Shown here piece by piece: positions 3,690 to 59,395 of a stretch of DNA of 64,000 nucleotides. Position numbers and translations under genes: made by a program. The DNA lies in NCBI RefSeq assembly GCF_003019035.1, contig NZ_CP027447.1; one strand, given 5' to 3'. Position 1 is the first letter of the stretch, and every line of letters starts with the position of its first letter. Below the pieces are notes generated by a model. That model made no database searches and was not told the DNA's origin. It was given only the letters and a program-made list of their open reading frames with translations. The stretch is from Escherichia coli. GTDB lineage: Bacteria; Pseudomonadota; Gammaproteobacteria; Enterobacterales; Enterobacteriaceae.

Positions 3690-3758
3690 GTTCTGGTTCA
3701 AGATTAGCCCCCGTTCTGTTGTCAGGTTGTACCTCTCAACGTGCGGGGGTTTTCTCTT
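3690..3758 (+). ncRNA. rdl: putative Rdl antisense RNA of the ldr locus (boundaries approximate)
   Basis: Plus-strand hairpin CCCCCG...CGGGGG followed by TTTTCTCTTTCC at about 3708-3760, antisense to the ldr 5' leader; position and size consistent with known ~66-nt Rdl RNAs; 5' end not determined. Confidence 0.4.
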
Positions 3759-19884: not shown

Positions 19885-19969
<85 letters not shown>

Positions 19970-20002
19970 AGGGGTAATTCAAATTCTGAGGTAATGCTTG
20001 AG

Positions 20003-20087
<85 letters not shown>

Positions 20088-20138
20088 CACGGGGTAATGC
20101 TTTTTACTGGCCTGCTCCCTTATCGGGAAGCGGGGCGC

Positions 20139-44926: not shown

Positions 44927-44985
44927 TTCCGCACAAAAACGACCCCGTAATATACGGGGTCAATAAGGACATGGTATAAAGGGTA

Positions 44986-45492
44986 TTATTTCTTCGCTTC
45001 TACGCCATCAGTTTCAGAGCGAATTAAAAATTTCTCAGTTGTTTGCGGAATATGCTGAATCAGCCAGTCGGCCATTTCTTTTTCCTCATTTAAAATCGCT
45101 TCGATGGTTGGAATTGAAGCTGTATCACCGGCATTTTTTGCTGCTGCTAATAGTGAGGTGTAACAGGCGATTTCAAATTGCTCGAAGACATATCCGCTAA
45201 TAGAGCCTTTGACTATTTCATCAGAAGGGAATATACCACCGATTGACTGCCCAAGCGCAGCCATTTTACTCATGGAATCTTTAATGACTGAACGTGAAAT
45301 GTCATTACGATCAAGAATAGTTTCCAGTTGAACAATCTGGTTTTTGGTTTCACTAAGATGTTGTTCAATACGAGCGCGTAGTTCAGGATAATTATCTATA
45401 CGGCTGGCCATGGATTCAAGCATAGATTCGGCTTGCTTTTCCATTGCATGGGCGTCACGTAACCAGTCATGATAATGTTCAATACGATTCAT
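44986..45492 (-). CDS. yciE: ferritin-like DUF892 protein YciE
   Basis: 168-aa ORF MNRIEHYHDWLRDAHAMEKQAESMLESMASRIDNYPELR... Confidence 0.9.
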   Translation of the reverse strand: MNRIEHYHDWLRDAHAMEKQAESMLESMASRIDNYPELRARIEQHLSETKNQIVQLETILDRNDISRSVIKDSMSKMAALGQSIGGIFPSDEIVKGSISGYVFEQFEIACYTSLLAAAKNAGDTASIPTIEAILNEEKEMADWLIQHIPQTTEKFLIRSETDGVEAKK

Positions 45493-45537: not shown

Positions 45538-45934
45538 TCAGGCTTTATTTTCGGCTTTCTTATTTACGTTATTAAGGGCCAGATCAGTCAGTTTGATGTC
45601 GGTGGCCTTTTCTTCTTCAAGAGTTTCTTTCAGAAGCTTAGCTGCTTTACGGTAACCTAATTGTTCAGCCAGCGTCGCTAATGTCCCGTAACTGGCAATC
45701 TCATAATGCTCGACTTTCTGTGCTGCGGCAATCAGTGCGACATCACGCACTTCGTTTTTCTCGGTACTTTCGATGACCTCATTAGCTTCTTCAATAAGAC
45801 CTTCCATTGCCACACAATTTTTCGTTTGATGTTGCTCTTGCGAGTTTTGCCAGTGCACGGGTTAATTGTTTTTCTGCACTGTAGGTATCTGAAAGCAGGT
45901 GAATAAATACATCTTCAATGGTCTTCATATTCAT
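45538..45934 (-). pseudogene. yciF: yciF (DUF892 paralog of yciE) apparently disrupted by a frameshifting internal deletion
   Basis: N-terminal segment [40 protein letters not shown] (start 45934) runs into stop after CGNGRSY; C-terminal segment ...[43 protein letters not shown]... continues in the +1 frame to 45538; joined product ~30 residues shorter than paralog YciE across the same aligned region. Confidence 0.6.
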
Positions 45935-46019: not shown

Positions 46020-46199
46020 TCAGGATTTTCCTGATTTATTACCACCGCTTTGTTGACCGCCTTTTTTACCTGCTTCGGATGCGCGTTGCGGATCATTTTT
46101 AAAATTACCGCCGCTATGCTGACCGCCTTTACGGCCTACGTCGGATGCCTTCTCACGGTCTTCGGCGAAATTTCCTGAACCACCACGATGTTCGGCCAT
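46020..46199 (-). CDS. yciG: KGG-repeat stress-induced protein YciG
   Basis: ORF track 46020..46256 trimmed to ATG 46199 (MAEHRGGSGNFAEDREKASDVGRKGGQHSGGNF...), 59 aa with repeated KGGQ motifs. Confidence 0.85.
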   Translation of the reverse strand: MAEHRGGSGNFAEDREKASDVGRKGGQHSGGNFKNDPQRASEAGKKGGQQSGGNKSGKS

Positions 46200-46579
46200 G
46201 TTATTTCTCCCGTTGCGTTGCATTGTTTGATTAATATGAGTGTTGTGTGTTGACACTCATTAAAATTAGTCGCAAATGAGTATTAGTCAAATTAAGCGTA
46301 ACGAGAAAAAAGAGGGAAAATATATTTTGAGGAACATTCTGGATATATTAACAATTGCCTGAGGAATAAGTGACTTAGAGAAAATTATTGATTTTACTGG
46401 TGTTATGTTGCGGGATTAATTTGTTTGATTATATTACTGTTGGGCGGAAAAATGACGTAAGTTGACGTTCGACAGGGGTAAACGAAACGGTAGAAAGATA
46501 AATATTAAATGAATTTAGGATTTTTCCGGCTTCGTTAAAGAAAGTTAAAATGCCGCCAGCGGAACTGGCGGCTGTGGGA

Positions 46580-53131: not shown

Positions 53132-53159
53132 AAAAAAAAGCCCGCTCATTAGGCGGGCT
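53132..53159 (-). terminator. trp attenuator (3:4 terminator hairpin plus U-run)
   Basis: Minus-strand AGCCCGCCTAATGAGCGGGCTTTTTTTT between trpL and trpE. Confidence 0.9.
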
Positions 53160-53201
53160 GGGTATCTGATTGCTTTACGCATGGTGAATACACTGCCCGT
53201 T

Positions 53202-53246
53202 TCAGGAAGTGCGCCACCAACCTTTCAGTACGAAAATTGCTTTCAT
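53202..53246 (-). CDS. trpL: trp operon leader peptide
   Basis: Minus-strand ATGAAAGCAATTTTCGTACTGAAAGGTTGGTGGCGCACTTCCTGA encodes [14 protein letters not shown] with tandem Trp codons. Confidence 0.95.
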
Positions 53247-58054: not shown

Positions 58055-59077
58055 ATGATTAGATATAGTGGAATATTTCTATCGCTGTTAATGCTTTCAG
58101 GTTGTGCAACCGAAGCATTGAAGAATGAACAAGCTGAAACTGTTATTACTGCGGGTAACAAGGCGGTTGCGGCGAATGCAAGTTTCTTTAAACAATACTA
58201 TGCTTCTCGTGAAAATTTCCTTGTTAATTTTTATGCGACTAATCCGGATTGTGCATTGCGACCTGATTATGAAACGATTATGGAAAATAATACTAATAAA
58301 GAGTCCTTATGTATGCAATCAGAGAAAGGGGACAAAACATCGTATAAAGACGTTACTAAAGTTCAATTGGCAACAACAGAAAAACAAAAGCTACTGGCTT
58401 CACTTGAGGTCGTTAACAGTATGAGCTCCTATGTGGAGTTGTTGACGGTGGATATGGATGTTGACGATAGTAAACAAATTATATTACTTAATCAGGCGCT
58501 CGATCATGCAAACAACGCCCAAAAACTACTTGGACTTTCAGAAGGTGAAGAACTGACTAAGTCAGCTGTAGCTGTTAAAGATTTAGTTCAATATTTCAAT
58601 GGATTATATAAAGAGAAGATTAAATCAGAAAATGTTGGTAAAACGGTAGGTAGTGACTGGCCACGACTTCAAAGAAATTTACAAGATTTACTTGAAGATA
58701 TAGCAACGAAACAGCAGCAAATGGATCGGAATAATTTTGCGAACATCAGTAATAATTTTTATTACTATAATAAGGCCCGGGAAAATACTAAAAATATAGA
58801 ATTTAAGACATTAAAGAGCAGGCAGGAATTTTTGAGTGCAGTAATTAATCTTAATGAAAGCAGATTGCGTTCATCTGATCCGGCGGCTCCAGCAATACAA
58901 GCTATTAATGCCTTCATGGATAAAGGAAATCATCTACAAGATTTATACTCTAATAAATCTCTTTCAAAAGCGGATTTAGAGCGTAGGAATGAGATCCTGC
59001 GTGCTCAAGTTATTAGTGGTCTTCAGGCGTCAGAGGAGCTGGCAAAACTTCTTATTGCCAGCGGAGTTATGTTATAG
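58055..59077 (+). CDS. predicted lipoprotein of unknown function (340 aa)
   Basis: ATG preceded by AAGAGGTG RBS; N-terminus MIRYSGIFLSLLMLSGC has a signal peptide with LSGC lipobox (Ala at +2, not Asp); remainder Asn/Lys/Gln/Glu-rich, likely helical; no family recognisable by eye. Confidence 0.7.
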   Translation: MIRYSGIFLSLLMLSGCATEALKNEQAETVITAGNKAVAANASFFKQYYASRENFLVNFYATNPDCALRPDYETIMENNTNKESLCMQSEKGDKTSYKDVTKVQLATTEKQKLLASLEVVNSMSSYVELLTVDMDVDDSKQIILLNQALDHANNAQKLLGLSEGEELTKSAVAVKDLVQYFNGLYKEKIKSENVGKTVGSDWPRLQRNLQDLLEDIATKQQQMDRNNFANISNNFYYYNKARENTKNIEFKTLKSRQEFLSAVINLNESRLRSSDPAAPAIQAINAFMDKGNHLQDLYSNKSLSKADLERRNEILRAQVISGLQASEELAKLLIASGVML

Positions 59078-59086
59078 GAGGTCATT

Positions 59087-59395
59087 ATGAACGATGTGCA
59101 AAATCGACGAATACTGGCATTGCTCAATATGCTGTACTATGCCTTAGGAAACCGAACAACTTGCGATATATGTCACAAATATTTTATTCTGGTTTTGTCG
59201 GTAATGAATAATCTGACAATTAATTATGGCTCGCAAACGTCACCAGAACTGACTGGTATTAGTTATGAAGATGCTAATGATTTGATCACTGAATTAATAC
59301 TGTTTATTGAAGACGTCAATGCGGATAATGACATGGAATATCCCGCACACTTGAATAAAATTCAAGCTCTTCTTAATTTTGCCGTGGCTAATTAA
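59087..59395 (+). CDS. small acidic cytoplasmic protein of unknown function (102 aa)
   Basis: ATG 5 nt after AGGAGG RBS that overlaps the stop of the preceding lipoprotein gene (translational coupling); no signal peptide; CDICH motif and acidic C-terminal half. Confidence 0.65.
   Translation: MNDVQNRRILALLNMLYYALGNRTTCDICHKYFILVLSVMNNLTINYGSQTSPELTGISYEDANDLITELILFIEDVNADNDMEYPAHLNKIQALLNFAVAN

Follow-up and report, generated by a model that had tools for sequence, protein, structure and literature searches.

The window (the whole 64,000-nt stretch of Escherichia coli DNA analysed here) carries the genes trpB-trpA-yciG-yciF-yciE-ompW in the same order as other E. coli. Three of these make up the yciGFE operon, which is sigma-S-dependent and activated by McbR/YncC, according to a passage of PMC7705038 that cites Beraud 2010 and Hindupur 2006. 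The first and last genes of the operon are intact, and the middle one, yciF, is interrupted by a deletion that leaves two remnants in different frames:

44940-44962, minus strand: terminator-like hairpin and T-run after yciE, a putative end of the transcription unit (from a consensus scan only)
44986-45492, minus strand: yciE, intact paralogue of yciF, 168 aa, last gene of the yciGFE operon
45538-45934, minus strand: disrupted yciF, from the ATG at 45934 to the stop at 45538
45816-45934, minus strand: yciF 5′ remnant by alignment, gene nt 1-119 (codons 1-39 and two bases of codon 40)
45815-45816, minus strand: deletion junction, with 104 nt absent between the two bases; the T at 45816 is a 1-nt microhomology
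45538-45815, minus strand: yciF 3′ remnant, codons 75-166 with the stop codon (gene nt 224-501), shifted to the +1 frame with respect to the ATG
45791-45934, minus strand: 47-aa ORF that remains in frame 0, made up of 40 native residues followed by CGNGRSY, with the stop TGA at 45793-45791
45538-45807, minus strand: internal ATG ORF, 89 aa (MEGLIEE...AENKA), its start 14 nt upstream of the premature stop
46020-46199, minus strand: intact yciG (59 aa), which opens the operon and has a lineage-specific A21V substitution
46572-46552: terminator-like hairpin after trpA (consensus scan)

The same consensus scan found no terminator-like site on the coding strand between yciF and yciE, and an Rfam scan of the whole window gave no match in the yciGFE region. 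Between the premature yciF stop and the yciE start lie 298 nt that are now untranslated; this stretch is A-rich, with 19% C and 22% G. An A-rich stretch with C at or below G offers no strong Rho substrate (rut sites). Polarity of the yciF lesion on yciE is expected to be modest at most, because the untranslated stretch should be no strong substrate for Rho.

A tandem pentanucleotide, CGTTG (CAACG on the gene strand), lies in the yciG 5′ UTR directly upstream of the ribosome-binding site, at 46211-46225 (+). There are two perfect copies in the window and in a K-12-like strain, four in strain 2016C-3878 and six in strain PD23; the yciG-trpA spacer measures 380, 390 or 400 nt because this copy number varies. 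Elsewhere in the window, Rfam matches at the gathering threshold are the rdlD antitoxin RNA at 3690-3755 (+), the trp operon leader at 53132-53225 (-) and two tRNAs at 19888-20088 (-), given as tRNA-Tyr in the record. An AT-rich insert of two genes, both annotated as hypothetical, sits between rluB and cobO at 58055-59395 (+). One of its ORFs is 340 aa long and carries a lipoprotein-like signal (MIRYSGIFLSLLMLSGC), the other is 102 aa long; Pfam gave no significant match and PADLOC none. Of 5,426 complete E. coli genomes, 811 have the insert in full length and about 420 others have part of it.

The deletion and the reading frames it leaves

Aligned with three intact E. coli yciF alleles (501 nt, 166 aa), the window shows a single gap of exactly 104 nt and no second indel. 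The missing segment is gene nt 120-223 or, equivalently, 119-222, given one ambiguous T at window position 45816. Its ends fall within codons 40 and 75, so that residues 41-74 are lost, and the reading frame shifts, as 104 is not divisible by three. Upstream of the junction, the N-terminal 40 aa are the same as in intact YciF; minus-strand translation then continues through the seven residues CGNGRSY to a stop. Downstream, the 92 residues encoded by the 3′ remnant are identical to the intact YciF of strain 2016C-3878 and end in ...AENKA at 45538.

These results bear out an earlier sequence-only reading of this DNA, which had described a normal YciF N-terminus running into a stop after seven unrelated residues, a conserved C-terminal portion in the +1 frame, and an adjacent yciE paralogue of 168 aa. 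It had placed the feature at 45538-45934, which coincides exactly with the ends of the yciF gene. From the comparison with yciE it had judged the joined yciF segments to be about 30 residues short, with some 100 nt gone, a figure that can now be refined to 104 nt and residues 41-74. Its proposal that an internal deletion of a length not divisible by three had made yciF a pseudogene or a truncated product agrees with the 104-nt loss and frameshift in the reference-genome alignment. The alternative it had named, that the reference YciF is itself a protein of about 90-130 aa, fails: the reference protein has 166 aa (PDB 2GS4, full-length match).

Translation of the C-terminal remnant would depend on the 89-aa ORF from the ATG at 45807, which would be the sole route to a C-terminal YciF fragment. 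Inspection of the sequence upstream of this ATG revealed no obvious Shine-Dalgarno motif. Gene callers report the 89-aa ORF in other assemblies. A programmed +1 ribosomal frameshift joining the two remnants was considered and rejected: the orthologues are single 501-nt ORFs and 104 nt of coding sequence are physically absent. Frameshifting could not restore residues 41-74, because their coding sequence is gone.

Distribution of the deletion across E. coli genomes

A 701-bp query across the yciE-yciF-yciG locus was compared by megablast with the 5,426 complete E. coli genomes. It matched 4,725 of them, with the full region present in at least 4,565. In the 100 matches listed from other genomes, the query aligns as two pieces over 804-806 bp, against 701 bp in the window; among the matches listed, a one-piece match at 100% identity occurs only in SCU-301 (NZ_CP051751.1). 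A 40-nt probe centred on the yciF junction, each half of which is too short to seed megablast, gave a single match among the 5,426 complete genomes, again SCU-301. Window and SCU-301 are 100% identical over 24 kb, the next best genome reaching 98.9%. SCU-301, a commensal isolated from a human host, belongs to phylogroup F and ST967 (PMC11251922).

As the junction is found in only 1 of 5,426 complete genomes, that lone record could be wrong, in which case the true genome would have an intact yciF and the 104-nt gap would be a mis-assembly of SCU-301. RefSeq/PGAP marks the gene (HHJ43_RS13100) as 'ferritin-like domain-containing protein; frameshifted', and this is the only frameshifted CDS in the surrounding 50 kb of the record, so the SCU-301 assembly is not generally indel-ridden. 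The one other pseudogene in those 50 kb is a YkgJ fragment, which is also present in 2016C-3878 and CM5 (two of three other strains examined). A clean loss of 104 nt is moreover unlike a typical homopolymer error.

Independent data also weigh against an artefact. In a collection of 15 billion proteins (NCBI, ENA and Logan), the 47-aa frameshift product is found exactly, out-of-frame tail and all, on 173 contigs; for the 89-aa C-terminal ORF the count is 186, and the locus tags of the two are adjacent. The identical junction was found in four loci (L006-L009) from different sources and sequencing runs: Logan SRR12584071, Logan SRR24464880, the NCBI draft GCA_002474725.1 and the ENA metagenome contig OKOL01004136.1. 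Over 6,144 bp, the first three differ from the window by 0, 1 and 1 SNP. The body of the metagenome contig (L006) is identical to the window, and only its ends, apparently chimeric, show a few mismatches; the idea that a divergent background of this contig marks an old or recombined allele was rejected, since the mismatches are confined to the contig ends. From the recurrence of the same junction in independent assemblies, together with the contig counts, the yciF deletion is real. The artefact that the sequence-only reading had kept in view is effectively refuted, and we give it practically no weight. Two marks of a genuine pseudogene are found in yciF, namely an ORF disrupted relative to same-species orthologues and a lesion reproduced in independent data.

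The same collection gives the extent of the lineage. The lineage-specific alleles of YciG (A21V) and TrpA were found as exact matches on 199 and 168 contigs, respectively, and the longest contig is the same for these two as for the yciF fragments; one intact YciF allele alone is found on at least 1,000 contigs. Because the fragment counts (173 and 186) agree with those of the flanking alleles (199 and 168), one clonal E. coli lineage (ST967 for SCU-301) seems to be fixed for the 104-nt deletion, as judged by contig counts and not by a phylogeny. The sequence-only reading had assigned the lesion to 'this strain': it is present there, as stated, but its range is wider and takes in an entire clone, represented by roughly 170-200 assemblies in public collections. 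In the 132 retained yciF codons the encoded residues are identical to those of the intact 2016C-3878 allele, all differences being synonymous. That the retained residues are unchanged and the carriers lie 0-1 SNP apart over 6 kb suggests a recent event in a young clone.

The locus itself was without a megablast match in 701 of the 5,426 complete genomes (about 13%), and around 160 more match it partly, for example with yciG only, or with yciE and yciF but no yciG. Judged by these unmatched and partly matched genomes, the yciGFE locus is variably present across E. coli.

Consequences for YciF

Intact YciF has 166 aa, the same length as the protein in PDB 2GS4, and is close to Salmonella YciF (PDB 4ERU). 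Pfam DUF892 (PF05974) covers residues 5-162, corresponding to profile positions 1-158 of 159. This Pfam family was used for assignment, as an NCBIfam profile scan of intact and truncated YciF, YciE and YciG returned no family match at E ≤ 0.001 and did not reproduce NCBI's name, 'YciE/YciF ferroxidase family'. The window has the same locus and gene as these known proteins, and its retained 40 + 92 residues match the intact E. coli allele; it differs from them in having lost 104 nt, the single ORF, Q54 and most of helix 2.

Salmonella YciF binds iron and acts as a ferroxidase, with a di-metal site in which Q54 lies at M2 and E113 at M1 while E143 bridges the two; the mutants Q54A, E113Q and E143D lose both the ferroxidase activity and the in-vivo protection against bile-induced ROS (bioRxiv 10.1101/2023.01.20.524870). 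Q54 (E. coli numbering, …LEETHGQ54IE…) falls within the deleted residues 41-74, and E113 and E143 are encoded solely in the out-of-frame remnant. An AlphaFold single-sequence model of intact YciF, of low confidence (pLDDT 59) and used for rough helix limits only, places helices at residues 6-34, 38-59 and 67-91. On these limits the deletion would cost the ferritin-like bundle the greater part of predicted helix 2, the loop after it and the beginning of helix 3. A YciF lacking the product of these 104 nt could not form the di-metal site even without the frameshift.

It is conceivable that yciF now works as a split gene, the 47-aa and/or 89-aa fragments being made and remaining somewhat active, for instance through association with YciE, the paralogue. 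Termination-reinitiation is geometrically possible, given the 14 nt between the ATG at 45807 and the premature stop, yet this ATG has no recognisable Shine-Dalgarno sequence. The C-terminal fragment retains E113 and E143, and both fragments are still matched by Pfam DUF892; against this, both are without Q54 and most of helix 2, and a four-helix bundle deprived of one helix is unlikely to fold. In Salmonella, Q54A by itself abolishes YciF protection (bioRxiv 10.1101/2023.01.20.524870). Residual function by this route is highly improbable.

Complete loss of function is thus the preferred reading. A functional member of DUF892 would show a single ORF of ~166 aa and the complete set of metal-site residues, neither of which is found in the window, and the orthologous position between trpA and ompW, which is. 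Whatever the fate of the fragments, no ferroxidase-competent YciF should be possible, and ferroxidase activity, iron binding and oligomer formation are all predicted to be absent; the allele would be null for function, with a null phenotype to be expected from the residues lost. Very probably, then, yciF is a genuine and recent loss-of-function pseudogene that arose by a single 104-bp deletion and looks fixed in one clone.

As such it is nothing out of the ordinary: a lineage-specific pseudogene, derived from a known stress gene and already flagged publicly, that involves no new element or mechanism; it is itself an instance of the lineage-specific frameshifted pseudogenes that PGAP flags and differs from them in nothing. 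What is added here is the resolution of the lesion to the base and its placement in a lineage. SCU-301, ST967 and the ~170-200 related assemblies should be treated as naturally yciF-null, yciE-positive and yciG-positive. The lineage could serve as a background for testing the part of YciF in the bile, peroxide and osmotic stress tolerance of a commensal, and the 40-nt junction provides a simple lineage marker.

Origin of the deletion and other yciF null alleles

The microhomology at the junction amounts to 1 nt only. Simple slippage between direct repeats was rejected for two candidate pairs: AAAT at nt 115/220 predicts an in-frame loss of 105 nt, and the 9-nt AAAATTAAG at nt 114/205 a loss of 91 nt, instead of 104. 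Most of the lost segment is enclosed by a perfect 10-bp inverted repeat, TTTCATGCGC/GCGCATGAAA (gene nt 130-139 and 213-222); the outer end of its right arm falls on the right breakpoint, while on the left 10 nt separate the arm from the breakpoint, which is outside the repeat. The predicted fold of the region is no better than that of shuffled sequence (z = -1.09), and a hairpin formed by this repeat is a weak idea that may at best have contributed. The most likely origin is an illegitimate, RecA-independent deletion by replication slippage or by misjoining at the 1-nt microhomology, which the inverted repeat may have assisted as a hairpin. The deletion shifts the frame after codon 40, so that translation ends after 47 residues and functional YciF would no longer be made.

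Several other yciF null alleles occur in E. coli:

L010 (GCA_003401005.1): IS1 at gene nt 119/120
L011: S36* (C107G)
L012: Q60* (C178T)
L013: IS1 replaces yciG and the 5′ end of yciF
L014: IS1 after about codon 62, with the overlap GTTGTGGAG

These alleles resemble that of the window in having the lesion in the N-terminal third, an intact yciE and a C-terminal ORF that is then called. They are nonsense mutations or IS1 events (including an IS1-associated deletion) on a K-12-like allele, whereas the window has a clean 104-nt deletion in phylogroup F. A 105-aa internal ORF with a GTG start, called in such yciF-null strains, is indexed in 318 blocks of the protein collection.

The AT-rich boundary GAAAAATT/AAG is both the deletion endpoint in the window and an IS1 insertion site in another strain. 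In that strain (L010) the IS1 end abuts yciF right after GAAAAATT, the left-breakpoint nucleotide. The deletion could accordingly be the footprint of an ancestral IS1 inserted after GAAAAATT and later excised imprecisely, taking 104 nt of yciF with it. yciF has been struck repeatedly by IS1 (L013 and L014), and the junction microhomology would rise under this account from 1 to 2 nt (TG). However, the L010 allele is a different, K-12-like one and so not the ancestor; there is no IS1 remnant at the junction, and no relative of the ST967 allele with an IS1 came to light. The coincidence is also weaker than it looks, as the protein cluster that revealed it collects only fragments of about this length, so that lesions at codons 40-46 were pre-selected; the chance of an exact coincidence is estimated at about 30-50%, which is not significant. 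An IS1 footprint is therefore improbable, and slippage or misjoining remains the favoured origin of the deletion.

The recurrence of null alleles raises the question of selection. Erosion of sigma-S-dependent functions is well known, and inactivation of YciF might have been selected in a gut-commensal lineage as part of such erosion. The apparent fixation of the allele in a clone of about 170-200 assemblies and the five or more further yciF null alleles that arose independently in E. coli would fit this view. If it were true, the 104-nt deletion, S36*, Q60* and the three IS1 events would together mean that loss of the ferroxidase is advantageous in some gut niches. However, several nulls are expected for any dispensable gene, given the very many public E. 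coli assemblies, and clonal fixation can result from hitch-hiking. Intact YciF is also far commoner, with more than 1,000 contigs for one allele and the full region in 4,565 of 5,426 complete genomes. That yciF is a recurrent target of selected inactivation, its loss being of advantage in some gut niches, is unlikely. The other nulls show that yciF is dispensable, not that its loss is selected, and we infer that the loss was neutral.

The reverse of the pattern in the window is seen in strain PD23 (L002, 1-3093), where yciE is frameshifted with an internal stop and yciF is intact; in this strain prophage tail-fibre genes adjoin a truncated ompW.
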